From contig JAZDKB010000009.1 of the NCBI GenBank assembly GCA_043803405.1, positions 96,001 to 160,000 on the forward strand: a DNA stretch of 64,000 nucleotides, given 5' to 3'. Numbering within the stretch: position 1 is the stretch's first letter; every line of letters starts with the position of its first letter. Positions 28,701 through 63,999 of this stretch are shown piece after piece. The translations under genes and the position numbers were made by a program. This DNA comes from Spirochaetota bacterium (lineage in GTDB: Bacteria; Spirochaetota; UBA4802; JAFGDQ01). The notes beneath the pieces were generated by a model that was given only the letters and a program-made list of their open reading frames with translations, had not been told where the DNA came from and did not search any database.

Positions 28701-29597
28701 TTAAACTCTCGGATGATATTTCTTATGAATCTCTTTAAGTTTACGTTTGGCCAAATGCGTATAAACCTGGGTTGTGGAAATATCCATGTGCCCAAGAAGT
28801 TCCTGCACAGAGCGCAGATCGGCTCCGTTTTCAATAAGATGAGTTGCAAAAGAGTGTCTTAAAGTATGAGGCGTTATATTTTTTTCTATTTCAGCTTTCT
28901 CTACGTAACCTTTTAAAAGACGCCAAACAGATTTTCTGTTAAGCAAAGGACCTTTCTTGCTGATAAACACATACTCGCTCGTCCTGTTGCTACCGAGAAT
29001 AACAGGCCTTGATTCATTTATATATTTATTCAGCAGTCTTACAGCTTCCTCGCCTATCGGCACAAGCCTTTCTTTGCTCCCTTTCCCAAGCACCCTTATA
29101 TATCTGTTGCTGAAATCAACATTATTGATTACAAGCTCAACAGCTTCCGAAATGCGAAGCCCGCAGGAGTACAGAAGCTCAAAAAGCGCCTTATCGCGAA
29201 GCTCGTAAATATCATCTTCCGAGATAGTTTTATATAGCTTATTGATCTCTTTAATGGTTAAAAAGTCGGGTAAAGATTTTTTTATCTGAGGCGTTTCAAC
29301 TTTATTGGTCGGATTTTCAAGCTCGCCTGTAGTGTCCGAAATAAAATTATAGAACTGCCGTATGGCGGCTAAAGATCTTGCAAGCGTCCTTGACGAGTTG
29401 TGTTTTTTTAGTCTCTCGAATTTAAGGAACTGTTTTATGTCGTCACCTGTAGCGGTCATGATGTCCTTATTAAGGGACGATAAAAATTCGTTGAATTTTT
29501 TAAGATCGTAAGTATATGCATAAACAGAATTATCGGATAATCCCTTTTCAATCTGCAAAAAGCGCTTGAATCTTTTTATTGCCGAAGTCTCTTTCAA
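28701..29597 (-). CDS. xerD: Tyrosine recombinase XerD
   Basis: LYSCGLRISE, GKGSKER, HTLRHSFATHL, VQELLGH and TTQVYTH; no IntI-specific insertion. Confidence 0.9.
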   Translation of the reverse strand: MKETSAIKRFKRFLQIEKGLSDNSVYAYTYDLKKFNEFLSSLNKDIMTATGDDIKQFLKFERLKKHNSSRTLARSLAAIRQFYNFISDTTGELENPTNKVETPQIKKSLPDFLTIKEINKLYKTISEDDIYELRDKALFELLYSCGLRISEAVELVINNVDFSNRYIRVLGKGSKERLVPIGEEAVRLLNKYINESRPVILGSNRTSEYVFISKKGPLLNRKSVWRLLKGYVEKAEIEKNITPHTLRHSFATHLIENGADLRSVQELLGHMDISTTQVYTHLAKRKLKEIHKKYHPRV

Positions 29598-50542: not shown

Positions 50543-51289
50543 TTAATTATTAAAAAGAAGTGGTAATTTAAAATTAACTTGTTTTTCCCCTTTATCAAAT
50601 TCGCGACCTTCTATTATCATAATTGTTTTACCATTTTTTTCTAATCGACCGATTGTAAATTTATACTGTTTTGCTTTAAAAGACTGTATATCTTTTAAAG
50701 CATTTAAATCTATATCTTTTGGTTCTTCAAATTTCCATTTATATCCTTTCCATTTACTTAAAAAACCGTTATTTTCATCAGTGATGTTTAATGTTTCTGA
50801 AAATAATAATTTATGCTCACCAACTATTATGATATTTTTAGTAATATCGATCTTGATGGCTTTAAGTAATGCTAATTTTCCTTCTGCTTCAAATTGAATA
50901 AAATCCCCCTTCTTTTTTATTATTATTTCTGCTTTTCCTGTTGATGCCAATTCTATATTTTTAGAATATTTGAAAAATTCTGTATGTTCTTCTTTAGTTA
51001 TTCCGAGGTTTGGATGATAAGGCATTGGTTTTCCTTCAGGAATAGTCTTCATATAGTTCACAAACCACTGGTAATTTTTCCGTATTCCAACTTGAATTTT
51101 TTTTGCCAGTTCTTCTTGACGTTTATTTATTTTAGTCTCCATTATATCAGCAATTATTTTCCCTCCAGGTATAAGGATATTTACGTCTTTCTTTACATCA
51201 CCAGTTAGTTCTCTTAGGTTATTTGCTTGAGCTAAACTACAAATTACCAGCAAGTATAAAATAACAGCAATGCTAACGATTCGATTCAT
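50543..51289 (-). CDS. Secreted hypothetical protein (cassette ORF)
   Basis: Signal peptide ..LAQA; begins 30 bp after an attC-like R' site. Confidence 0.75.
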   Translation of the reverse strand: MNRIVSIAVILYLLVICSLAQANNLRELTGDVKKDVNILIPGGKIIADIMETKINKRQEELAKKIQVGIRKNYQWFVNYMKTIPEGKPMPYHPNLGITKEEHTEFFKYSKNIELASTGKAEIIIKKKGDFIQFEAEGKLALLKAIKIDITKNIIIVGEHKLLFSETLNITDENNGFLSKWKGYKWKFEEPKDIDLNALKDIQSFKAKQYKFTIGRLEKNGKTIMIIEGREFDKGEKQVNFKLPLLFNN

Positions 51290-51318
51290 ATATTTTCCTT
51301 ATTAAACTTATGATTTGA

Positions 51319-51429
51319 CCTTAACAATGAGAAAGTACAAGCATTCAATAAAATTCACGCAGAGGGCAAAGGTACATGCTCCACTGAGACAAATACGCCG
51401 CTTTGTCATACTGCAAGCCGATGTTAGGT
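51319..51429 (-). other. attC-like site 1 (111 bp)
   Basis: Minus strand R'' ACCTAAC ... R' GTTAAGG; GC-richer than flanks; between co-oriented ORFs. Confidence 0.7.
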
Positions 51430-51453
51430 AAATGTTTAGCCCAAGCTTTTTGC

Positions 51454-52653
51454 TTATGGATTATTGAAATTTATAACCTCACCTGTATTTTTGTAACCGA
51501 TTAAGCATGAATCAGATGAAAGAACAATTCCACTAGCTTTGTTACGATTTAACTTATTTGTCCCTTCTATTAGAACAAAATTATTGGTAATCCCAGGATC
51601 TATTACTTTGATGAGATAAAAATCATTGAATTCAAATTTAAAACTATTATTTGTAATGAACATTTTTCCGGTTGACAGATAGGCAGACTCAGAATTTTTA
51701 CTCCAACAACAAAATAAAGCTACATCACAGTCTTTTACAATTTTACATAACTTAATACCACTTTTGGCTGCTGCTTTTATCTTTAAAGTAGAAATATTCT
51801 TCCCGGGGAAAGTTTTTAAAATCTCACATTCATAAATGATATTATTTTTATCTATTGCGTCTATCTTTACAATAGATTTTAGCTCATCAGTAAAACAAAT
51901 AATCAGTCCAGCATCCCTCACTAGTAAGCCATATATAGTATGATTTGTTGGCTTATATACATCAGGATAAAGATACTGAGAAACGTCTTTTTCTGAAATT
52001 GGTTTTATATGTTGTATATAATTAATCGTTACAATTGAATCTATGTAATTTTTAATTACATCATTTCCGATAGATAATTTTCTTTCTTCGGTTATAATCT
52101 CAAAAGAATCTAAAAGATCATTATAAAATTTAATATACTTGTTATACTCGTTTATGTCGCTGGAAGCGAGAGTAATTACAAATATTGATTTATTAGTTCC
52201 AATAAAGCATACTCTTTCTGTTTTATTATATGGCATATTTGTAAATTCATAAATTTGTCCTTTATATTTATTCTTTATAAATATGTCGTTTAATTTTTTA
52301 GCTTCAACTTTCTCAGTTTTACTTTTATAGTCCTTAATATCTCTTTCGATAAAACCTTGCAAACCACCATTTTCATTTTCAATTGAGTAGATAGAAGAAT
52401 ATATATAAGTAAAAAGTTTGTTGTTTTCATTGCCTTTTGGATAAATAAAAAATGGTACTCTGTTTCTTTTAGCAGTTACTTTATCCAGATACCAACCTTT
52501 ATCTGGTTTTAATGAATACATAACTGGGCCGGAATAAGGTGTCGCCGTAAAATTTCCAGTTTCTTCTTCGTTAATAGTTTCCGAATTAGCAGCAGTAATA
52601 GAAAATATGAAATTTAAGATCAGAAGCAATTTTATTAGTTTTAAATTCTGCAT
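51454..52653 (-). CDS. Secreted hypothetical protein (cassette ORF)
   Basis: Signal peptide; 399 aa; bounded by attC-like sites 1 and 2. Confidence 0.75.
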   Translation of the reverse strand: MQNLKLIKLLLILNFIFSITAANSETINEEETGNFTATPYSGPVMYSLKPDKGWYLDKVTAKRNRVPFFIYPKGNENNKLFTYIYSSIYSIENENGGLQGFIERDIKDYKSKTEKVEAKKLNDIFIKNKYKGQIYEFTNMPYNKTERVCFIGTNKSIFVITLASSDINEYNKYIKFYNDLLDSFEIITEERKLSIGNDVIKNYIDSIVTINYIQHIKPISEKDVSQYLYPDVYKPTNHTIYGLLVRDAGLIICFTDELKSIVKIDAIDKNNIIYECEILKTFPGKNISTLKIKAAAKSGIKLCKIVKDCDVALFCCWSKNSESAYLSTGKMFITNNSFKFEFNDFYLIKVIDPGITNNFVLIEGTNKLNRNKASGIVLSSDSCLIGYKNTGEVINFNNP

Positions 52654-52693
52654 TAAAACTCCAATCTCTTTTATAATAAAATATATATTTTTA

Positions 52694-52824
52694 ACTTAAC
52701 GACGGGCTAAGTTGTTTTTACGGGTGACAGCAATGGCATTAAAAACTCGCTGATATTAAAACAGCAACCACATACTGAAACAGTGAAAGCGCGAGTAAAA
52801 ACCAGGCTTGAGACCATGTTAAGC
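52694..52824 (-). other. attC-like site 2 (131 bp)
   Basis: R'' GCTTAAC directly abuts the upstream TAG; L'' CTCAAGCC; GTTTTTAC/GTAAAAAC stem; R' GTTAAGT. Confidence 0.82.
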
Positions 52825-53562
52825 CTATTTATTTTTTTGGTTAAATGGAATAAATTTTTCTTTATTTGTAAGCTCAAATTTTGATTTATTTGAATTCCAT
52901 TGGAATAAAATTTTTTCAAATTCTTTCATTCCAATATTATCTAAAGTATTGGAAATATTTATAAAATCTCTATCTTGATAAATTCTGTTTGCAAAATGTA
53001 AACATTTGTCACATACTTGTACCGTTATATTTAATCCTTCTCTTGGTAATTTGTAGTAAAAATTATCTAATTTAAAAGTACTTGCTATCTCTCTTCTTAT
53101 TTTATAGAAATTATTTTGTTTGCTATTAGAATAAAATTCTTCAATAGGTAGTATTGGAATTTTATTTAGAGTTATATCGTACCATTGTTTTCCATTAAAT
53201 GTATATATCCCAAATTGTAATGTGCTTGTGAACCCTTCACCTTGATCATATATGTTTATAGCTATAAAATGGTTATTTTTTTTATCAATAAAAAGAGCAA
53301 GTTCAGTTACATAAGAACTTGCTCCAGTTCCGCCATCCTTAATTTCAATAAAACCGTTTTTTATATCTACCGTAGCATAATCCTCATAGCCCATAGTTGT
53401 TTTAAATTTATATTTTGAATCTTTTAAAAAAATAGGATAATATCGTTGTTTAATTATCGATTCCGCATTTTTATAGTAATCCAGGATTGTAAACTTGCTT
53501 AAATCATCTGCATGTACATTAATTGCGGTAGTAATAAATAATAAAAATAATATTTTTTTCAT
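52825..53562 (-). CDS. Secreted hypothetical protein (cassette ORF)
   Basis: Signal peptide ..NVHA; GGAG RBS; bounded by attC-like sites 2 and 3. Confidence 0.75.
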   Translation of the reverse strand: MKKILFLLFITTAINVHADDLSKFTILDYYKNAESIIKQRYYPIFLKDSKYKFKTTMGYEDYATVDIKNGFIEIKDGGTGASSYVTELALFIDKKNNHFIAINIYDQGEGFTSTLQFGIYTFNGKQWYDITLNKIPILPIEEFYSNSKQNNFYKIRREIASTFKLDNFYYKLPREGLNITVQVCDKCLHFANRIYQDRDFINISNTLDNIGMKEFEKILFQWNSNKSKFELTNKEKFIPFNQKNK

Positions 53563-53581
53563 TACAATCTCCAAAAGACAG

Positions 53582-53711
53582 GCCTAATGATATGAATCAG
53601 CTGTTCTTGCGGGTAAAGGCACTGGATTACAAAAGCATAGTGGCTTTAACCTGCACTGAATTTAAAAACAAATAATACACGAGCAAAAATAAGACTGGAA
53701 CACGATTATAG
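53582..53711 (-). other. attC-like site 3 (130 bp) with variant cores
   Basis: R'' CTATAAT, L'' TTCCAGTC, TTTTTGC/GCAAGAA stem, L' GCTGAT, R' ATTAGGC; same length and layout as sites 2 and 4. Confidence 0.68.
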
Positions 53712-53733
53712 GTTTTTATTTTTTTACTATTAA

Positions 53734-54123
53734 TTATACAAGCCATGTTTTATTTGGACGCTTTTGATAAATATCAACTATTTGATAATTTTGTAATATT
53801 GGTAAAATATAGTTTATACAACGTACATTTGAATTTTTATCTCGTGAAACAAGACAAAGAGGACCTGCTGCTTTTTCTGAATTTGATGAACGAATCTCAC
53901 ATTGATTTTTAAAATAATGATCGTTTTGAAACAGGTAGTGTAATGTAGAGGAAAACGATTCTTTAGTTATTGAAATATTTTGAGGTGTAATTGTAATTTT
54001 TTGGTTGTATTTCTCTTTGATAAAAAAATTTTTCCCTTTGTAAAGATCAGGAGTTCTGAACTGCCGACCTTCTTCTAACTTAGACCATACTTTTTCGATT
54101 ATATTTTGACAGTGTTCGCACAT
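53734..54123 (-). CDS. Cytoplasmic hypothetical protein (cassette ORF)
   Basis: 129-aa ORF; N-terminal CEHC. Confidence 0.7.
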   Translation of the reverse strand: MCEHCQNIIEKVWSKLEEGRQFRTPDLYKGKNFFIKEKYNQKITITPQNISITKESFSSTLHYLFQNDHYFKNQCEIRSSNSEKAAGPLCLVSRDKNSNVRCINYILPILQNYQIVDIYQKRPNKTWLV

Positions 54124-54156
54124 ATTTCATTTTCTATATAGTATATCTAAACACAT

Positions 54157-54624
54157 TTATTTATTTTGGTTTTGAGATGCATAATGCTTCAATCTATTAG
54201 GTAGATCTTTTTTTAATCCTGTTTCCCATAACAGCAGAGGGATTTCATCTCTCCATTTATTTTCGCTATTAAAAATTCCTTTAGCAATTAAATTTCGTTT
54301 TTCATATAACTTAAATTGTTTATTTCGTGAATTAAATACAAAAACATGTGTAGCAGTTGTATCAAATATATTTCCGCTATATTTAGCTGACTCTGTAGAT
54401 GTTCCGACTATTTGAATTTAATTTTTAATGAATATATTTTCAATATAATTATGAACATATTTAGAATTATCTGATAGTCCGAGGTACTTAGTAAGTTCAT
54501 CATCCGAATTTACAAAAATAGAAATCGAAGGATTATCAGTAGGAGTTTTCTTTATAATCAAATGATTATATGATGTCATGCAACCATATAAAAAGAGAAA
54601 AATAATAAAAAATAACCTTTTCAT
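54157..54624 (-). pseudogene. Cassette lipoprotein interrupted by an in-frame TAA
   Basis: Lipobox LYGC; TAA at 54418-54420, after which the frame stays open for 86 codons to TAA at 54157. Confidence 0.7.
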
Positions 54625-54646
54625 TTTTTTACTCCAATAAGATATT

Positions 54647-54777
54647 TTCCAACGAAATGTTCAGCTGCATGGCGGGTACTGGCACAGGCATTGCTAACCC
54701 GGCCAATAATGGAACATGCATAAATAACAGCAGCTAATCCAGCGCCAGCCATGTCAGACTCGAACCGCTGGTTAGGC
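54647..54777 (-). other. attC-like site 4 (131 bp)
   Basis: R'' GCCTAAC, L'' TTCGAGTC, CATGGC/GCCATG stem, L' GCTGAA, R' GTTGGAA. Confidence 0.82.
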
Positions 54778-54814
54778 CTCTTTCTTTGCATTTATCAGAA
54801 TACATGCTGATGGC

Positions 54815-54835
54815 ATCTAACGATTTGTCAAGATC
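54815..54835 (-). other. Candidate attI-like primary site
   Basis: Lone GTTAGAT core (..CTTGACAAATCGTTAGAT) at the head of the array with no matching upstream R''. Confidence 0.35.
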
Positions 54836-54974
54836 AAAACTTTGTGATTTAGCCGATTTTCATGTATCATAATTTCTAATGCCGATCATCCAATTTGCCG
54901 AATGATAAATATTATTTACTAAATTTTATATATTATCATTTCTTTCATTGCCCTTACAACAATTACAAACATAG

Positions 54975-55425
54975 GTAAACGAACCGGCAGAGTATATTCA
55001 GCGTGTCCCGAATGCGCTCAAAGCTATTCTGAAAAAGCACTTTCAGAGCTTCTCTGAAAAAGACAGCAGTAAATACAATTCAGGATCAGAAAGGATCAGA
55101 CTTGATAGAATAGAGTCATTCAAGGATAGCCTGATCTCTTGCGGTGATTACACAAAAGGAATAGCGCGTATACAATGCTCAAAACTCGATTGCAAGCACG
55201 AGATATTCAGGCCATTTTCCTGCAAACGCTTTTACTTCTGCCCGTCGTGCAGCCAGAAAAGAGCGATTCTATTTGGTGAACACGTCTCTGACGAAGTACT
55301 TCTAAAACTGCTGCACAGGCATTGTTCTGGCGTTTCAGTCTTACGGTGACTTTTAAGATTTAATCCGCACTTACACAGCCTGATCCTCGAAGGAGGCTTT
55401 GACGAAGACGGCAATTTCATTTTTA
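54975..55425 (+). pseudogene. IS91-family (Y2 HUH) transposase remnant
   Basis: Manual translation: SCGDYTKGIARIQC..DCKHEIFRPFSCKRFYFCPSCSQKR zinc-binding domain; after a deletion and frameshift QSYGDF/LRFNPHLHSLILEGG (HUH motif); truncated. Confidence 0.88.
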
Positions 55426-55529
55426 GGCAGATACGCTATTTTGACCCCCTGCTTGGCCATTTTGTTGTGAATTATTAGTTGAAATTATTTTCAGGATTGC
55501 TATCTTATTAGGATGAAGACAATAAAACT

Positions 55530-56552
55530 ATGCTGATAAAAATCAAAAAAATTATTTTCACTTCACTTCTCCTGTTAATTTCAGGCATAGCATGCGGAGG
55601 AGGAAGCGATGAACATGGAACTACTTCATGGTATGAGGTGACAGATTTTCAATTAATCAATACATACAACGATTCCACAAGGCTTACCCTGCTGTATCCT
55701 AAAACTGTTTCCGGAAATATTATCTATATTGAAAGTTCAACTGATCTCCACATAAACACAGTGAGTGATTTCAATAATAGCCCTGCAGCAAAAACAACAA
55801 AGACTGTTGCTGCGGATGATAATATATATGATGATTATATCACTTCAATCTCTTACGGCAGTTTAAAGAAAGTGTACTTTTATGTGCTGTACGACGGCAT
55901 GCTCAGAACATTTACAGGCACAACATCCGGTTCCGGTTCAACAACAATAACCGGATCAGTAACCGGATCAACTACAATGACCACTACAATAACATTGCCT
56001 ACCGGTTACAATGATGATACATTAAAAACATGGCCATTCATAGTCTCGTTAAAAGGACCGGCTTTCGGTAATCTTCCATGTATTACGTTATGTGTTAATA
56101 TAAGCTGGAGTAACAATACACAGTACAATGCCGATCTCGAAGCTATTAAAAATCTGGTTAAATCTATTATTGAAGGTACGGTAAATGTCGGGGATGCCCC
56201 GGCCAGGATTAATAAAAATAAAATTTACGGATTCGGATTCAGCGCCGGAGGATGCGCTGTAATGCAGATAGCCAACGATGATGCTAGCAGTCAATATGAT
56301 TTTATTGCAATTATCGGAGTCGGGATAAGTTCATGGATTGGGCAGTATTATTCCGATAATCTGGGTGATAAAAATATCTGGCTGTTCTGGGGCGAGGATG
56401 ATGATCCCTATGGTCCACAGACAGTGACCGCATTCGGATATATCCCTGCCGGTAGCGGCGAACATATTTTAACAGAGATGTACGATACGGGTCATACGTC
56501 GACTCCAGTAACTGCAAGTCCGTATATGTATATGTGGCTTTTAAGTAAATAG
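55530..56552 (+). CDS. Lipoprotein with C-terminal alpha/beta-hydrolase domain
   Basis: Lipobox GIAC; GFSAGG nucleophile elbow; GEDD and TGH as candidate Asp/His. Confidence 0.75.
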   Translation: MLIKIKKIIFTSLLLLISGIACGGGSDEHGTTSWYEVTDFQLINTYNDSTRLTLLYPKTVSGNIIYIESSTDLHINTVSDFNNSPAAKTTKTVAADDNIYDDYITSISYGSLKKVYFYVLYDGMLRTFTGTTSGSGSTTITGSVTGSTTMTTTITLPTGYNDDTLKTWPFIVSLKGPAFGNLPCITLCVNISWSNNTQYNADLEAIKNLVKSIIEGTVNVGDAPARINKNKIYGFGFSAGGCAVMQIANDDASSQYDFIAIIGVGISSWIGQYYSDNLGDKNIWLFWGEDDDPYGPQTVTAFGYIPAGSGEHILTEMYDTGHTSTPVTASPYMYMWLLSK

Positions 56553-56691
56553 GGATGACGATTATAAAAATAAATTCGTTAAAATAATAAAGTAAATGAA
56601 ATAAATTTTGTTTTATTCTCCCTTTCTGTGATCTAGAAATATTATTTGTTATAGATTTACTTGGTAATTTATCCTTGCTTTAAAAAAGCTT

Positions 56692-58347
56692 TTATTTCCA
56701 GTCGAAATACTGTAAACGGGTAATTCCGGGAAGCAGACGCCCGAGGTCTTTTCCGTCACTTAGCCGTATTAACCGCAGCTCGGCATAGCCGCAGGTCCGG
56801 ATATATGCCGCGTACTGCCCGCTTGGGTCATACACCGGCAGCCAGTTTATCCACGGGTCATGGACAAGCGTCCGCTGGCCGGAACCGTCCAGTTTTGCCT
56901 CAACAATATCCCATGGGACAAAGGACGCGCGGATATCCGAATAAAAATCGTATGGTGCCGTTATACGTTCAAATATCGCGCTGTCACCTTTTGCTACAGG
57001 GTCATGGTCTACAACATCATCTCCAAATGAAACCTGTTTTACATTGGTTCCGTCCGAGTCCATAATCGCGATCCTTAATTCGAATTCGTCAGGATAAGTG
57101 TACCATGGAGTCCACCTGCTAGTTTTAAAGATAATGCGTCCATCAGTTAACCAGTCAGGGTCATTCTCTTCGGTGTTAGTTGTTGTTTCAATACTCAGGT
57201 CTGTCGCAGTGCTGATGTCATCTGAATCCGCGACCCATATGTGGCCGGTACCGTATTGAAATGTTATATAAACAAGCTTCGAATCATCGGGTGACCAGCC
57301 AGGGTGGCCATGTACGAATCCTGTTGCTGAATTGAAGCGGTGGTAATCTGATCCGTCAAGTTTTATCATGTAAATATCTACATTGTTTGTTGTAAACATG
57401 GGTGTTGTTGATCCCATAAAGGCGACCCGGCTGCGGTCATGAGATAATGAAATGTTATCAATATACAGGCTTTCAAATTCCGCAACTTTTAAAGGGTCTG
57501 AATCTGTACATGTAAGCCGCGTAACAGCTTTTGTCTGCGGGTTGAATTTATAAATCTTACCTTTTTCATCTTCATGTCTGCTTATCAGTACTATCTGTCC
57601 CTGAAGATCCCCAGGTATGCTTAAATGAGAAAGTGGCCCTGCTGCAGTGAGCGGTATTTTGCTCCATTCACCTTCAAAGATATAGCCCGCATGGGTTGGT
57701 GTGCTGAACATGTGATTTACGATCATAACATTAAAACGGGAGGAGGGAGTTATATTTTTATCGTCAGTGTCGGTGCTTGTCAGCGGAATTATAAACTCCG
57801 CTTTATATTTTTTTTCACCAGGATAATACTTCATGTATCCGTTACCGTCTCCAATGAGATCATCATATTCGGCAGGATCAACCGGTGTTTTCCGTGAATC
57901 AAGATATTGCGCGCTGTTAAGCTCACTTACAATTATTTTCTGATCTTCATCATCCTGAAAAATCCCATCACCGTTGTTATCGATCATCAGAAATATTTCG
58001 TCACAGGCAACCGGGCCGCTTGAAGTGTACTGGTCGTCAAAAGATTCGTCAGTCCATTCTACTGCAATATATAATTCCCGGTCATCATTTACAAAAGCAA
58101 TGCGGACAGGTATGGTAGTGTAAACAACCTGGTCTGCAATGTTTCTTAGCGTAATGGTGTAGTCCTTGACATTACTGAGAGTAGAAAAGTCAACTATTCC
58201 GTCAACAGGGTATAATTCGGACAGGCTGGGATCTGTATGGCCGGGAGTAGAATTATCAGAATTAGTTTTTGAACAGCTTATTATTCCAATAATTAAGAAA
58301 TTGAGTAGGAATAAGGTACTAAAGTATGCTATCGATCTTTTTACCAT
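56692..58347 (-). CDS. Lipoprotein with DOMON/CBM9-like N-domain and TolB-like beta-propeller
   Basis: Lipobox IISC; LYIAVEWTD..AEFIIPL; PGWSPDD, PDW.TDG and P.YDPSG repeats. Confidence 0.75.
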   Translation of the reverse strand: MVKRSIAYFSTLFLLNFLIIGIISCSKTNSDNSTPGHTDPSLSELYPVDGIVDFSTLSNVKDYTITLRNIADQVVYTTIPVRIAFVNDDRELYIAVEWTDESFDDQYTSSGPVACDEIFLMIDNNGDGIFQDDEDQKIIVSELNSAQYLDSRKTPVDPAEYDDLIGDGNGYMKYYPGEKKYKAEFIIPLTSTDTDDKNITPSSRFNVMIVNHMFSTPTHAGYIFEGEWSKIPLTAAGPLSHLSIPGDLQGQIVLISRHEDEKGKIYKFNPQTKAVTRLTCTDSDPLKVAEFESLYIDNISLSHDRSRVAFMGSTTPMFTTNNVDIYMIKLDGSDYHRFNSATGFVHGHPGWSPDDSKLVYITFQYGTGHIWVADSDDISTATDLSIETTTNTEENDPDWLTDGRIIFKTSRWTPWYTYPDEFELRIAIMDSDGTNVKQVSFGDDVVDHDPVAKGDSAIFERITAPYDFYSDIRASFVPWDIVEAKLDGSGQRTLVHDPWINWLPVYDPSGQYAAYIRTCGYAELRLIRLSDGKDLGRLLPGITRLQYFDWK

Positions 58348-58576: not shown

Positions 58577-59200
58577 TTAATTTTTTAATGAATTCATTAA
58601 TTCGAAGTAATACTTTGCTTCTTTTGTAATATATAATGAATACCAAGCAGATAATGTTTCTTTTTTGAAAATTTTTAATTGTTGAATAATCTCAAATGTG
58701 AATTCTAGTGGAGCTAAACCAGTGGCAGTAATTAGATTTTGATCACATACAGCAGGTTTTTCTTGGTATTTCCCTTCTCCACTATAATCTGGGCAAATCA
58801 TTTTTAAATATTCTTTGCTATTGGAAGTATGCATTTTATTATTTAATGCACCAATACGTCCTAAACCTATAGTTGCTCCACATATTGCTGCTACATTGTA
58901 ATCTCTTTCTATATAATTTTTTGCTATAAATAATGCATTTTCGTTTTCTTTATTCAACCATGTATCTGCACCAGGTAAAATTAAAATATCTTCTTTATTA
59001 AGATTTATTTTTTCAATGGTCATATCTGGAGTAATTGCTATTCCTCCCATTGTTTTTATTGATTCTCTTGTATTACCTATTTTAATCAAAGCACATTCTT
59101 CATTTTTATTCTTGAAATATCGCTTACTCGTTAACTCCGCAGTAATAAATCCAATTTCCCAATCAGCTAATGTATTTAATAAATATAAATATACTTTCAT
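58577..59200 (-). CDS. DJ-1/PfpI family protein (YdeA-like)
   Basis: LADWEIG, LILPGADTW, AAICGAT and LITA.G. Confidence 0.9.
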   Translation of the reverse strand: MKVYLYLLNTLADWEIGFITAELTSKRYFKNKNEECALIKIGNTRESIKTMGGIAITPDMTIEKINLNKEDILILPGADTWLNKENENALFIAKNYIERDYNVAAICGATIGLGRIGALNNKMHTSNSKEYLKMICPDYSGEGKYQEKPAVCDQNLITATGLAPLEFTFEIIQQLKIFKKETLSAWYSLYITKEAKYYFELMNSLKN

Positions 59201-59654
59201 CTTAATTCCTCCACAGTAATAATTGTTTTTATTAGTATGTTCACAAAGGATCGTACTTTACAGTTTTTGTAAACACGGGTGTAAAGGATGATCCTTTACT
59301 GTGCCGTATCAATTCTAACATATTATTATATAGTTTCCATATAACTACGGCTATTCAGTCAATTTCACCCATTTATTGCCGGATTATAACTTTACCTGAC
59401 TGTATAATATTACAATTAGCATATTATCCCGAAACCGGATAATACCGCTATAGTATCATCGCATATAATTTACTGATAGCAAATGCTACTCCGGTCTCGA
59501 CTGCCAGAACTGTCTGCCGCAGACACGATAGGTCGTACCCTGCTTTATTAATTATTAGCTTCTTCAGACATCGATCTAAGAAATTTTTTCTTACAATTTA
59601 TATATGTAAATTGCTTAGGTGAGTTTTCTACATTGAAACGCCAGGCACTTTTAG

Positions 59655-60392
59655 CTAGTTTTTATCTTTAATTTTTTGGTCAACAACTTGTATGAACTTT
59701 TCAGCTATTTCATTTTCTATTTGTATGGCTTTTTCTAATTCCTGTGGTGTAAAAATATCTTTCGTTACATGCAGATTTACTTTGTAAAGATGACATCTGC
59801 CAGGTTCTTTTTCAGAACGGTCGATGAATTCAGAGAGTTCTTTTCCTTCACCAATAATGTCATGGGAAATTTTATTCTGAATATTTTTATGCACGATAAA
59901 AGTAGTTTCAGTCCCAATCAGTTTTAATTTTGTTAAACCCTTCTTTTTTAACTCGATAAGTTCCTGAAGCTCTTCTTTGTTCATCGGCGTCTCCTTTTTG
60001 ATAATAACTTCTCTATCATTACAGATTATAGTTTCAAATTTTATTGTCAATTCTTCTATTTTCTTACGAACCTCATTTAAATTAAATGGTTTTTTTAAAT
60101 AGTCATCCATTCCGCATTCGGAATATTTATCTTTAATTGAAATATTTCCTGTAACTGCAAGGATAGGAAAATATTTTGTTCTACGGCGAATCAACTTGGT
60201 TGCCTCGTACCCGCTCATATAAGGCATGTCAATATCCATTAAACAAATATCATATTTGCCTTCATTTTCTATTGCGCGGTTGACTGCATCTCTTCCATTG
60301 TCCACAAGGTCACAAGTATATCCCCACTTTGTAAGAATTTTTTTATAAAAGTTACTACTGGTCTGATCGTCTTCTGCAACTAATATTTTCAT
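59655..60392 (-). CDS. Response regulator with unrecognised C-terminal domain
   Basis: ILVAEDD, LMDIDMP.M.G, AVT and KPF in the receiver domain. Confidence 0.88.
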   Translation of the reverse strand: MKILVAEDDQTSSNFYKKILTKWGYTCDLVDNGRDAVNRAIENEGKYDICLMDIDMPYMSGYEATKLIRRRTKYFPILAVTGNISIKDKYSECGMDDYLKKPFNLNEVRKKIEELTIKFETIICNDREVIIKKETPMNKEELQELIELKKKGLTKLKLIGTETTFIVHKNIQNKISHDIIGEGKELSEFIDRSEKEPGRCHLYKVNLHVTKDIFTPQELEKAIQIENEIAEKFIQVVDQKIKDKN

Positions 60393-60787
60393 ATTATTTG
60401 TCTCCCTATATTAAAATTCGCAAGTACTTTTCCTTAATGATTTAATGTAAAGTGAGCTTTGGTTATTCGTGTAAGGTTAATTTAAAATTTTTTATAAGAA
60501 CTTCTATATTTTTACTCTATGTACTTTCCTGTAATTAAAGGCAGTCAAATTCGCTCTGTTAACGACATCAAAAAGGTGTGAACCGCAATGCCGATGCTGA
60601 TAACAAATCGATTTAATCTCGGTAGCTCACCCAACCTGGCACAAACACAACAAGTAAATCAGGTTATATTATATCTTAAGCATTATACTTTGCAACGCTC
60701 TGTTTTCTTTTTAAAATTTACATCTATTCAAGTCATGGATATAAAAGTCTTAAATTTTTTATTTATGTATCATTTAATTATTAACTA

Positions 60788-61176
60788 TTATTGGCAGAAG
60801 TCATCTGAGATACTTCCCGAACTTCCGCCAGCAATATCCATCTCACTGGCAAGTTTATCATCTGTATAAATAGCAATTGTAATTGAGCTTCCTATATCAT
60901 TGTTTGTAGCATATAAAACTGCCTGCTGGCATATATCGGATAATTTTACTGTAAAATCATAATTCCATGGGAGGCTGTTGATTTCAGAACTTACCCATGT
61001 CGAGCCGGCTGAATTACCTCCATGCACTTCACCGCTATTAGTGAGAAATGTTACAGAAACGCTGCTGGAATCTCCGGTTATAACATATTTGAAATTAACT
61101 TCCTTCAATAGTGAAGCTAATGAGGTTAAATCGCAGCCGATAAAAAAAAATAAAATTATTATCAGTTTTTTTTCAT
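60788..61176 (-). pseudogene. Lipoprotein frameshifted in an A8 tract right after ATG
   Basis: AAGGA RBS, ATG-A8-CTGATAATAATT..; nine or six A would give MKK(K)LIIILFFFIGC in frame with ORF 60788..61108. Confidence 0.7.
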
Positions 61177-61236
61177 ATAATAGTCCTTAAATAACACTCC
61201 TTATGTTCCATATTTTGCTAATGATTGAGATTTGCC

Positions 61237-61728
61237 TCATGCATCCAGTTTAACTTCGCCTGTCTCAACATCAAGCAAAACTATAAAAAGTTGCAACAAT
61301 GATCGATCTGAAAGGTATCGATTGATTTCCCGATTGACTTCTTCAATAAGTAACCGGATATCCTCAAACTCTCTAATTGCCCGAATATAATCAGTGTCGG
61401 ACATAAACGGCCATCCATACGATCTTAAAGCGCCATGTACAATATAATTGCGAATATTTCGCACATATTCAAGTCGATCTGCCAATGAGTCATCAGGTAA
61501 TTGTTTCTGAAGCCCTTTAATAAGTTGGCCAAGGGTTTTCGACCAGAATTCAGCAGGATCCAGCTTACTCAGAAGACCCAGATGTGTCGCCAGACTAAAT
61601 TCAAATGACTGGATGACTGCCAGTGCCGCCCCCAGAGAGACAAATAGAGCAAGGTCGTCATGACTTCGCTGGAATTTAAAAGTAGTGTCTTTTCCTACTG
61701 GCAGAAGTATTGGTTCTTCATTATTCAT
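61237..61728 (-). CDS. Stand-alone HEPN-like protein
   Basis: TLGQLI helix followed by RNYIVH (Rx4H). Confidence 0.55.
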   Translation of the reverse strand: MNNEEPILLPVGKDTTFKFQRSHDDLALFVSLGAALAVIQSFEFSLATHLGLLSKLDPAEFWSKTLGQLIKGLQKQLPDDSLADRLEYVRNIRNYIVHGALRSYGWPFMSDTDYIRAIREFEDIRLLIEEVNREINRYLSDRSLLQLFIVLLDVETGEVKLDA

Positions 61729-61975
61729 TTTTGCAACCTTATATGATCTTCGAGAAAAAAATATCAGAATTCTATTTTAATGCTTTTTATCGTTTCATCT
61801 GAGTTTGCCCCTGCCATGTGGGCCGGATAAATGCTGATAAGCCAATACGCGATACCTGCTCCAAAGCAATTTAAGCGAAGGCGAACTTCTCGGACAAACT
61901 CCAGCAAAGGGACTGGTCACATTTGGCTTCCAATGTTGAGGATTTTTATTTATTCTCTGTAAATATGTAATTATA

Positions 61976-62572
61976 CTATTTCTCACCTTTAGTATTCAGG
62001 AATTCTTTAATTTTTATCAATTCGGAATCAGACACTTTCATAGTAATTGCATCTGTCATTGCGTATAATCTATATTCCAAACTTTTAGAATTTATAATTG
62101 CTTTTTCAAGATCACTTGTTAACATTATTTTTCCTGTCAATAATTTTGATTCTCTTGTAGAAGATTCGACCTTTACTTCGTCTTTCCCTGTCATAAAGTT
62201 CTTTTCTGTTTTAGACTCATGTTCAACTTCAGTTTGCATTTTTGAAGATGGATCATTAAGTTTAAGTTCTGTGACTTTATTATCAACCTTAATGAATGCC
62301 TCATTCTTTAAATCATTAACATTCACAGATGCAATTATGCTAAAGAATACATTTGTTGGTGTACTCTTCCCATCTTTTATTTCCCTAAAATATTTCCCAC
62401 CATATGTCGTTACTCCTTTACTAAATCCACCTCCATCTATAGTTGCGTCATGATCCATATCCATTGTTATCACGATTGAATTTTTAAAAGAGTCTTTCTT
62501 AACCTGGATTTCACCGGTTGTACATCCAAAAATAAAACTAAAGCAGATGAGTAAAAAAACAAATCTTTTCAT
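61976..62572 (-). CDS. Hypothetical lipoprotein
   Basis: Lipobox IFGC; GAGGT RBS. Confidence 0.8.
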   Translation of the reverse strand: MKRFVFLLICFSFIFGCTTGEIQVKKDSFKNSIVITMDMDHDATIDGGGFSKGVTTYGGKYFREIKDGKSTPTNVFFSIIASVNVNDLKNEAFIKVDNKVTELKLNDPSSKMQTEVEHESKTEKNFMTGKDEVKVESSTRESKLLTGKIMLTSDLEKAIINSKSLEYRLYAMTDAITMKVSDSELIKIKEFLNTKGEK

Positions 62573-62913
62573 ATGAACCTCTTTTTGTTGTAATTTTTTT
62601 TATAAATATAATTTATTGATATAAATTAATAATCTGCAATTCAAACACGGCTTCACCTAAGCTCCCGAACGCCCCTGCAACCCCGCCCGCCCTTCATGCT
62701 GAGTCAGCTTTATGCTCAGAACGCTCATGCATATAGTATGCTTTTGCTGCTGCGATTGCCTTCCTTTGCGTATTGCGAAAAGTAGGTTGAGCAATCAGCA
62801 AGTGAATAACAATGTACCAAATACCCCACTGACGATTAAAACAAAACTCAGTTGTGTTCTCCACGACACCAACAAGCTTAACAATTTAAGCATAGACGGA
62901 TTTCGTGTAAGTG

Positions 62914-63999
62914 TTATGGATTAATAACCTTAATAAAGCCTGCAGATGAACTCCCGTTATGTAAATCTATTCTTACTCCGTTTATCCAATAACAGGCAAT
63001 ATTGGTGAATCCAAGAGTATAATACCCGGCTGCATAAACATCAGTTCCCGATACAAAAATAGAGAAAGCATATGATTTGTTACCGTCACTATCCAAAAGA
63101 GTCCTGATTCCATTTTTCCAGTAACAAGCCTGTTCATAGCTGCCATTGTTATTATATCCTGATATATAAACATCCGTGCCAGAAACAAATACCGAGAGCA
63201 GGTTATAGGAGCCAGTTATCGTTAAATCAACAGGATTGTCTGTATTTTTCCAATAGCAGGCCTTCAACTGGCTACTTGCATTATAATGAGTGCCTATTAC
63301 ATAAACATCGGTTCCCGATACAGATATAGAACTTGTAGATGCATTACCTACGCCAACCATCGGTAAATAATAAATAGTGCTATTTATCCAGTAACATGGA
63401 ATTAAGACTCCGCTCTGATAGAAGCCATTTGTATACACGTTTGATCCAGACACGAATATAGAACCGGCAGATGAATCACCTGTTGTGTTAATTAAGTCAT
63501 ATCTAGTGCTGTTTTTCCAGTAACATGCTATGTTCCGTCCACTAACATAATAACCGGATGAATATACGTCTGTTCCTGATACAAACATATCGGTTACATG
63601 TGAATTATTTTGAGTAATTAAATCAGTTTTAACTCCATTTAACCAGTAACATGCAACATTGTATGTTCCATTATAATAAGAACCAGTAACATATGTATCA
63701 GTTTCAGATACTAATACTGAAGATGCACTTGAGTTACTTGTATTATGTAAATCAATTTTTTCACCATTTTTCCAATAACATGCTACATTATATGTTCCGT
63801 TATTGTAACTACCGGCTACATAATTATCATACTTCCAAATCGCATATAGTGTTATATCTGCCGTTCCTATTAGGAATGTTTTACCTTTCAAATATGTAGT
63901 CCCTGTGCCATCGGCCGCAGAATTCCACCAAACTAGACCATAACCTGATTTAACCAGACTGTTGTTTCCAAGAATAGTAGCAGTTTGGCCTTCTTCATA
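62914..63999 (-). CDS. Surface protein with InlB B-repeat and YVAG..ACYWKNG beta-propeller repeats (5' end outside window)
   Basis: Frame open to window end: KSGY...WNSAADGTGTTY..ITLYAIW, then seven VY..G......ACYW.NG-type repeats. Confidence 0.8.
   Translation of the reverse strand, partial: YEEGQTATILGNNSLVKSGYGLVWWNSAADGTGTTYLKGKTFLIGTADITLYAIWKYDNYVAGSYNNGTYNVACYWKNGEKIDLHNTSNSSASSVLVSETDTYVTGSYYNGTYNVACYWLNGVKTDLITQNNSHVTDMFVSGTDVYSSGYYVSGRNIACYWKNSTRYDLINTTGDSSAGSIFVSGSNVYTNGFYQSGVLIPCYWINSTIYYLPMVGVGNASTSSISVSGTDVYVIGTHYNASSQLKACYWKNTDNPVDLTITGSYNLLSVFVSGTDVYISGYNNNGSYEQACYWKNGIRTLLDSDGNKSYAFSIFVSGTDVYAAGYYTLGFTNIACYWINGVRIDLHNGSSSAGFIKVINP

Follow-up and report, generated by a model that had tools for sequence, protein, structure and literature searches.

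The window analysed here is a stretch of 64,000 nucleotides from a Spirochaetota bacterium (G000:C9:96001-160000, where G000 is a draft genome of 54 contigs). It contains an array of gene cassettes separated by sites of the integron attC type, and the array is headed, back to back, by the remnant of an IS91/ISCR-type HUH transposase (Table 1). The open reading frames (ORFs) across 50543-54624 are all located on the minus strand in one orientation, at 28% GC, and four of the five named ORFs carry signal- or lipoprotein-like N-termini, as judged by eye from the translations. This anatomy, which is observed directly, agrees with a preliminary description of the locus, in which a divergent IS91-family transposase remnant was reported at the head of co-oriented and mostly secreted ORFs.

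Table 1 The cassette array and the adjoining transposase remnant (positions in the window)
Feature	Position	Strand	Description
IS91/ISCR-type HUH transposase pseudogene	54948..55425	+	PF14319 E 2e-9; translation; alignment to L009/L011/L014
Element spacer, attC R'' to transposase start	54778..54947	.	conserved in close relatives; belongs to element
GTTAGAT heptamer	54815..54821	-	127 bp from transposase start codon
First attC, 131 bp	54647..54777	-	R'' GCCTAAC, R' GTTGGAA; R1 50.8 bits; top strand antisense to transposase
Cassette 1	53734..54624	-	lipoprotein-like ORF, stop after 68 codons, then 129-aa ORF
Second attC	53582..53713	-	R1 43.3 bits; both cores decayed
Cassette 2	52825..53574	-	249-aa protein, signal-like N-terminus
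Third attC, intact	52694..52824	-	R1 68.4 bits
Cassette 3	51454..52653	-	399-aa protein, signal-like N-terminus
Fourth site	51319..51429	-	sound R''/L'' arm and R' core; arms unpaired; decayed or hybrid attC
Last ORF	50543..51289	-	248-aa protein, signal-like N-terminus

The attC sites were scored with a covariance model, R1, trained on six attC sites elsewhere in G000, two of them from the array linked to the integron integrase gene intI. R1 is a local model and not that of IntegronFinder; it is lineage-specific and misses distant attC types. Its training stems covary, with changes on both sides in 9 of 23 pairs and none of 500 shuffles as high, a contrast that the kinship of the sequences inflates. 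Two other scans were set aside, a palindrome-only search swamped by repeats resembling repetitive extragenic palindromes (REP-like) and a strict regular expression that missed CATAAC-type sites. R1 accepts three window sites, so that three of the four attC-like sites in the preliminary description stand, whereas the fourth is a half-site because it finds no R1 match and its arms do not pair (arm score 0). With at least two attC sites on the same strand (three by R1) and no intI or intI pseudogene nearby, the array is classed as a CALIN (attC sites clustered without an integron integrase). It is not a complete integron, having neither an adjacent intI nor an attI at its head.

The transposase remnant starts with a TTG codon at 54948, carries an in-frame stop at codon 9 and retains the zinc-binding domain. 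It has lost about 140 nt in an internal deletion, contains frameshifts, has its HLH motif out of frame, and ends after about residue 203 of about 450, with the catalytic-tyrosine region (Y271 of the intact homologue P0003) gone. The remnant itself fails to reach PF04986, while intact homologues up to 79-81% identical carry both PF14319 and PF04986, and P0003 lies above the NF033538 cut-off. On the ISCR clade Ia model NF052416, intact homologues score 114-130 bits, far under the curated cut-off of 925; among named transposases, the nearest relative is that of a Leptospirales record, and no solved structure matched alignment A1. The motif of the replication origin end (oriIS), described below, is absent in 55400-56700, 3' of the remnant. 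Since oriIS and the catalytic half are lost, the window copy is unable to move itself. In the window no recombinase gene lies in cis with the remnant, and among 120 homologous loci an upstream recombinase is found only in L039 and L042, where a phage-integrase-like gene (L039:540-1229 in the former) precedes the transposase in a two-gene IS91 type.

The attC, spacer and transposase gene together align with loci L014 and L011 at 71-75% identity over 630-714 nt. The first attC has a homologous site in L014 and a half-site in L011, with the extra bases in its R'' arm; judged from this comparison, it is part of the rolling-circle element. The preliminary description had taken the lone GTTAGAT in the spacer as the head core of the array. 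The heptamer is present, but it is not conserved in L009, L011 and L014, none lies at a comparable place in 20 relatives, and when this spacer is shuffled, 17% of the shuffles contain a GTTRRRY. It is thus probably a chance occurrence and not an attI core. An outward promoter in the spacer was considered and rejected: TTGACA is kept in three of four aligned relatives, but promoter-like matches are at chance level. In addition, a 56-codon open frame (window:54621-54791, minus strand) crosses the first attC into the start of cassette 1 and has a 59-codon counterpart in L014; it could be a translational leader or could be due to chance.

The junction between attC and transposase recurs in relatives. 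Homologous loci were drawn from metagenomes (79; the best 80 of 527 matches), genome contigs and spirochaete genomes, and the 120 loci were reduced to 90 by dropping those with less than 260 nt upstream, those with no N-terminal match and duplicates. An arm-pairing detector (score at least 15, antisense strand, within 360 nt upstream of the transposase) finds a divergent upstream attC in 18 of the 90 loci, the window included. Among the controls it is positive in 5 of 1080 shuffles, in 2 of the 40 regions on the far side of oriIS and in 1 of the 57 regions taken 700 nt upstream; a stricter score leaves 11 of the 90 loci and none in any of the three controls. In the window's clade, which is starred on the transposase tree, all five members hold a full or broken site with a conserved spacer, at unrelated loci. 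In 15 of the 18 positives, extra bases occur on the antisense strand in the R'' arm only, and the attC is therefore oriented divergently from the transposase. On the tree (FastTree), for which one plasmid copy and seven further sites, broken or of low score and identified by eye, were added, the attC trait is clustered, with 12 changes compared with 22.7 when shuffled, of which at least 7 are forced by starred branches. No IntI is encoded in the 120 loci (594 kb). Intact homologues do recur divergently within 200 bp of an attC, with the spacer conserved, which is what the preliminary description had proposed to check. Moreover, G000 holds a second remnant (G000:C21:15510-15660), in which an internal part of the transposase has been joined, through a deletion, to the 3' half of an attC in the same relative orientation; the unit of transposase and attC therefore existed twice in this genome. 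Some sites are themselves interrupted: in L140 (G330:C103) an IS110-like element splits the R' core of the element's attC, and in L141 (G391:C1, a complete spirochaete genome) a group II intron-like insertion lies in the left arm.

At the opposite end, intact transposases are followed by the motif TT(C/A)CTA(T/C)CANT, which 27 of 40 loci carry 150-320 nt past the stop codon, compared with none of 62 controls. We take this motif to resemble the oriIS end of IS91. In the cases read (L023, L192) the oriIS-like end is joined to the middle of unrelated, non-integron genes, presumably fliG-like in L023 and hisE-like in L192. Because oriIS lies 3' of the gene and is joined to unrelated genes, the attC and the array are on the terIS side, where one-ended transposition gathers passengers. 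One-ended transposition has been reported at 1-14% for IS91 and IS1294, and for about half of the events without Orf121 (excerpts of PMC13181058). Short tandem duplications of the oriIS end are frequent among homologues (L018, L032, L065, L081, L083, L108). In a spirochaete draft genome, an intact homologue has on the far side of its oriIS end (L137:5635-7366, G330:C1) genes that from their N-termini we take to be ermB-like and partial ant(6)-like.

The sequence on the far side of the attC changes between copies. In close relatives identity drops to the background of 0.26 just past the R' core, with the core partly kept (33 pairs). The same build is found on clinical plasmids, where ISCR28 has been named beside armA in pSY153-MDR (PMC5620268, in excerpt) and an ISCR20-like element beside rmtE2 (PMC9311965, in excerpt). 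Their transposase is 33% identical to P0003 and 40% to P0016, and a divergent attC of 65 bp lies 77 nt upstream. Across seven plasmid loci this near-identical attC meets five different partners, with the junction at G|TT; among them are aacA4 and the start of qacE-delta-1, and the partner sequences keep the TTRRRY core consensus expected of IntI. These partner changes are observed directly, and G|TT junctions of this kind are the signature of IntI crossover. An ordinary integrase encoded elsewhere likely does the cassette swapping; of the 12 genomes with an attC-ended element that were tested, 7 encode an IntI above the cut-off, and the remaining five are drafts 91-93% complete. In a class 1 integron (L218:3851-4420, CP017387.1) the 5' remnant and attC of the element lie between intI1 and aacA4, replacing the normal attI1. 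The L141 transposase is 89% identical to the ISCR20-like protein of pS68, and L141 is a possible environmental source lineage.

An intact integron integrase is encoded on the same contig as the window array, 119 kb away (C9:269679-270623; 453 bits compared with a cut-off of 265). It belongs to a resident integron (G000:C9:269625-282264, L109) composed of a 333-aa intI, a small basic ORF and an array, all co-oriented; TGTCTA/TAGACA repeats precede the first GTT core, and the array is cut by the end of the contig. One attC of this integron holds a group II intron. The order of intI, small ORF and array is also present in G004, and the intI–small ORF pair in G001 and G003; G004 further contains two divergent intI genes back to back (L150 and L153, G004:C33), one followed by the small ORF and an array. 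In Treponema, intI is likewise co-oriented with its array (PMC3607928, in excerpt). Since intI in this lineage precedes its array in the same orientation, there is no reason to expect a divergent intI here, and the earlier expectation of one at the array head was wrong for this lineage. The absence of IntI from the window is borne out: the recombinase at 28701-29597 scores 93 bits on TIGR02249, under the cut-off of 265, and there is no intI pseudogene within 50 kb around the array. The second and third window attC sites are each 73% identical to an attC of the resident array, while the head of the window array has no similarity to the resident head. The intact window attC sites would remain substrates for the integrase 119 kb away.

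Evidence that the element carries cassettes comes from G458:C6, where two copies lie 20 kb apart and are 100% identical over 1877 and 2272 nt, with an ISL3-type insertion in one. The duplicated unit, which is observed directly, consists of the transposase and an attC, then a HigBA-like toxin-antitoxin cassette, another attC and the beginning of an AraC-like ORF, within which the second copy stops at a TACT junction resembling the oriIS end. The arrangement fits rolling-circle read-through across two attC sites, and, together with the recurring junction and its conserved spacer, it sides with the preliminary description, which had allowed that the HUH element might carry the cassette platform. 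As regards a terIS hairpin with a fixed cleavage site 5' of the gene, left breakpoints vary among copies and the G458 copy ends within an ORF. The attC R' as a fixed element terminus was ruled out, as the flanks keep RYYYAAC and the G458 copy reads through two sites.

We regard the window locus as what is left of a dead ISCR-like rolling-circle element, with a 5' attC that faces away from the transposase and an IntI-loaded array as its passenger, a reading to which we give a probability of about 0.6. A host IntI acting from another position probably filled the array, and one-ended rolling-circle transposition probably moved it. In the proposed mechanism, the transposase would nick at oriIS; copying would run through the transposase gene, then past the attC into the array, and would halt at sequences resembling the nick site. 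A host IntI acting in trans would add or swap cassettes at the attC of the element. That adjacent DNA travels along by rolling-circle transposition is suggested by the G458 duplication. A broader proposal is that a widespread ISCR-like branch constitutes a portable, integrase-free integron platform, in which the element plants an attC at new positions on chromosomes or plasmids, host IntI fills it and the element copies the array onward. This is more tentative, and we place it slightly short of even odds.

Several observations weigh against the reading of a rolling-circle element with its own attC. A scored attC is missing from 72 of the 90 loci and is not universal in the family, and the 18 positives overstate the association, because some sites were already known from inspection when the detector was written, and because the loci are kin. 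The attC types match the general pool of the host, which makes repeated capture likely and fits it as well as it fits an ancestral part. A second attC downstream is found in 1 of 10 positives compared with 1 of 21 controls, by a script that missed the window's own sites; by eye, arrays follow the first attC in the window, L023, L037, L137 and L193, and no cassette is evident after it in L015, L138, L178 and L197. In G458, a draft assembly, the two flanks do not rebuild an empty site and no IntI lies above the cut-off. For the window copy no empty site was found, and its oriIS is gone.

An alternative that we consider unlikely, though weighty, is that the element inserts repeatedly and backwards into existing arrays just upstream of attC R'', the attC being target or bystander, and that the window array was split later from the resident integron. 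In line with this, the attC types track the host lineage and not the transposase tree, the starred branches force repeated trait changes, the spacers and attC bodies of L050, L165 and L178 form mosaics, and the window attC sites resemble those of the intI-linked array. However, the oriIS side should then also lie in an array, and attC is found there in only 2 of 40 cases, with the junctions that were read in housekeeping genes; near-identical elements, moreover, keep the same attC across genera and plasmids. Such insertion may account for how the unit arose and need not conflict with a rolling-circle element that has its own attC. A simpler reading was offered by the preliminary description, namely an ordinary IS91 insertion that displaced intI, and by extension a chance insertion beside a CALIN with or without intI loss. 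Most homologues do lack an attC, and CALINs occur commonly and are often found on the same replicon as intI (excerpts of PMC4889954). Chance is nevertheless very improbable: the junction is homologous in all five window-clade members at unrelated loci, no trace of intI lies near the array, the side and orientation of the attC are fixed, and the spacer and attC conserved in L009, L011 and L014 largely refute it. Displacement of intI is unlikely because relatives inherited the same attC–transposase junction at unrelated loci.

The clean G|TT junctions invite another explanation, that transposase and attC form a passive antisense gene cassette moved by IntI alone, as suggested for ISCR28 (PMC12772301, in excerpt); K. 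pneumoniae KP36 plasmid 2, with the 5' remnant and attC between intI1 and aacA4, agrees with it. A cassette would require a further att site at its opposite end, though, whereas intact copies end in a conserved oriIS at unrelated genes, and the G458 copy ends inside an ORF and not at G|TT. We judge this explanation improbable. The preliminary description had also raised an HUH enzyme that replaces IntI, which would then itself excise or insert cassettes at attC hairpins. IntI recombines the bottom strand of attC. The transposase would displace the top strand, the partners keep the core consensus expected of IntI, transposase junctions resemble TACT and differ from G|TT, and the G458 copy extends across two attC sites. 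The replacement idea could appeal to the lack of IntI from the 120 loci, to the five of 12 tested genomes without IntI above the cut-off, although these are the incomplete drafts, and to the attC occupying the place of the IS91 terIS hairpin (PMC13181058, in excerpt). It is without support, because partners change exactly at the IntI crossover, the nick site of the element differs and G000 encodes an intact IntI; we consider it scarcely credible.

The contents and surroundings of the window array add further detail. Pfam and NCBIfam searches gave no match for cassette 1. Distant homologues of cassette 2 occur in 17 of 121 other genomes of the class, and none of nine examined is followed by an attC. 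No clear attC lies beyond the last ORF, and Rfam finds only tRNAs in the window. A weak partial match to the attC model (window:60577-60656, 23 bits) lies after a response-regulator gene, and the ORFs around 58577-63891 look horizontally acquired. A dispersed palindromic repeat of 90-180 bp with the ends CCCTAAC...GTTAGGG is present on G000 contigs C1, C3, C4, C18, C19, C20, C33, C44 and C53; it mimics attC cores yet is symmetric and REP-like. Synteny with G004 breaks right after the permease, with neither array nor intI there, and the gene on the other side of the locus was not found in five relatives. Among sequencing reads, one DNA run with a low share yielded five short pieces and no joints, and no RNA dataset was listed.

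The element resembles several known systems. The ISCR28/ISCR20-like elements (pSY153-MDR armA, pS68 rmtE2 and sul4 modules) belong to the same protein family and share the oriIS-type end and the divergent upstream attC, whereas the window copy is dead, belongs to a distant spirochaete lineage and heads non-resistance cassettes. In the excerpts of PMC12772301, attC sites at or after ISCR28 are mentioned with data not shown and are interpreted as passive shuffling; ISCR20-like elements are placed at integrons, with attC not named in the excerpts of PMC5732528 and PMC5034289. Our literature search, with Toleman 2006, the ISCR28 paper of Yuan et al. 2024 and supplements outside its scope, found no account of a fixed 5' attC or of G|TT partner changes in ISCR elements. 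IS91, IS801 and IS1294 likewise have an HUH transposase, an oriIS 3' of the gene, no target duplication seen and 5'-side read-through. The present element differs from the IS91 family in a target that resembles the oriIS end and not GTTC/CTTG, in one conserved tyrosine in Y-x-x-R, in the lack of orf121 and in an attC in place of terIS. IS1111 elements and group IIC introns, which are also mobile elements tied to attC, insert into attC, whereas the attC here is whole and travels with the element. The IS1111–attC association is cited in the excerpts of PMC3971601. ISCR1 in complex class 1 integrons is also IS91-like, with a cassette array attached on the side of its terminus (PMC3575428). It follows the 3' conserved segment of a complete integron, whereas the window element heads its array back to back with no intI in cis. 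CALINs and single attC sites lacking integron integrases (SALINs) share with the window array the presence of two or more attC sites without intI nearby and with intI at another place in the replicon (Cury et al. 2016; Loot et al., attG preprint; both in excerpt). The four origins in the excerpts of PMC4889954, as well as the attG route, omit a transposon that brings its own attC.

The window locus is a dead relic, and its value lies in the family-wide pattern. A rolling-circle element with its own attC would add a further route to integrase-less arrays beyond the four listed in the excerpts of PMC4889954. If the proposal of a portable platform is true, such elements would serve as a general source for CALINs and account for the fusion of ISCR28/ISCR20 to class 1 integrons. 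The same build in the ISCR28/ISCR20-like elements offers a precise explanation of their class 1 integron junctions.

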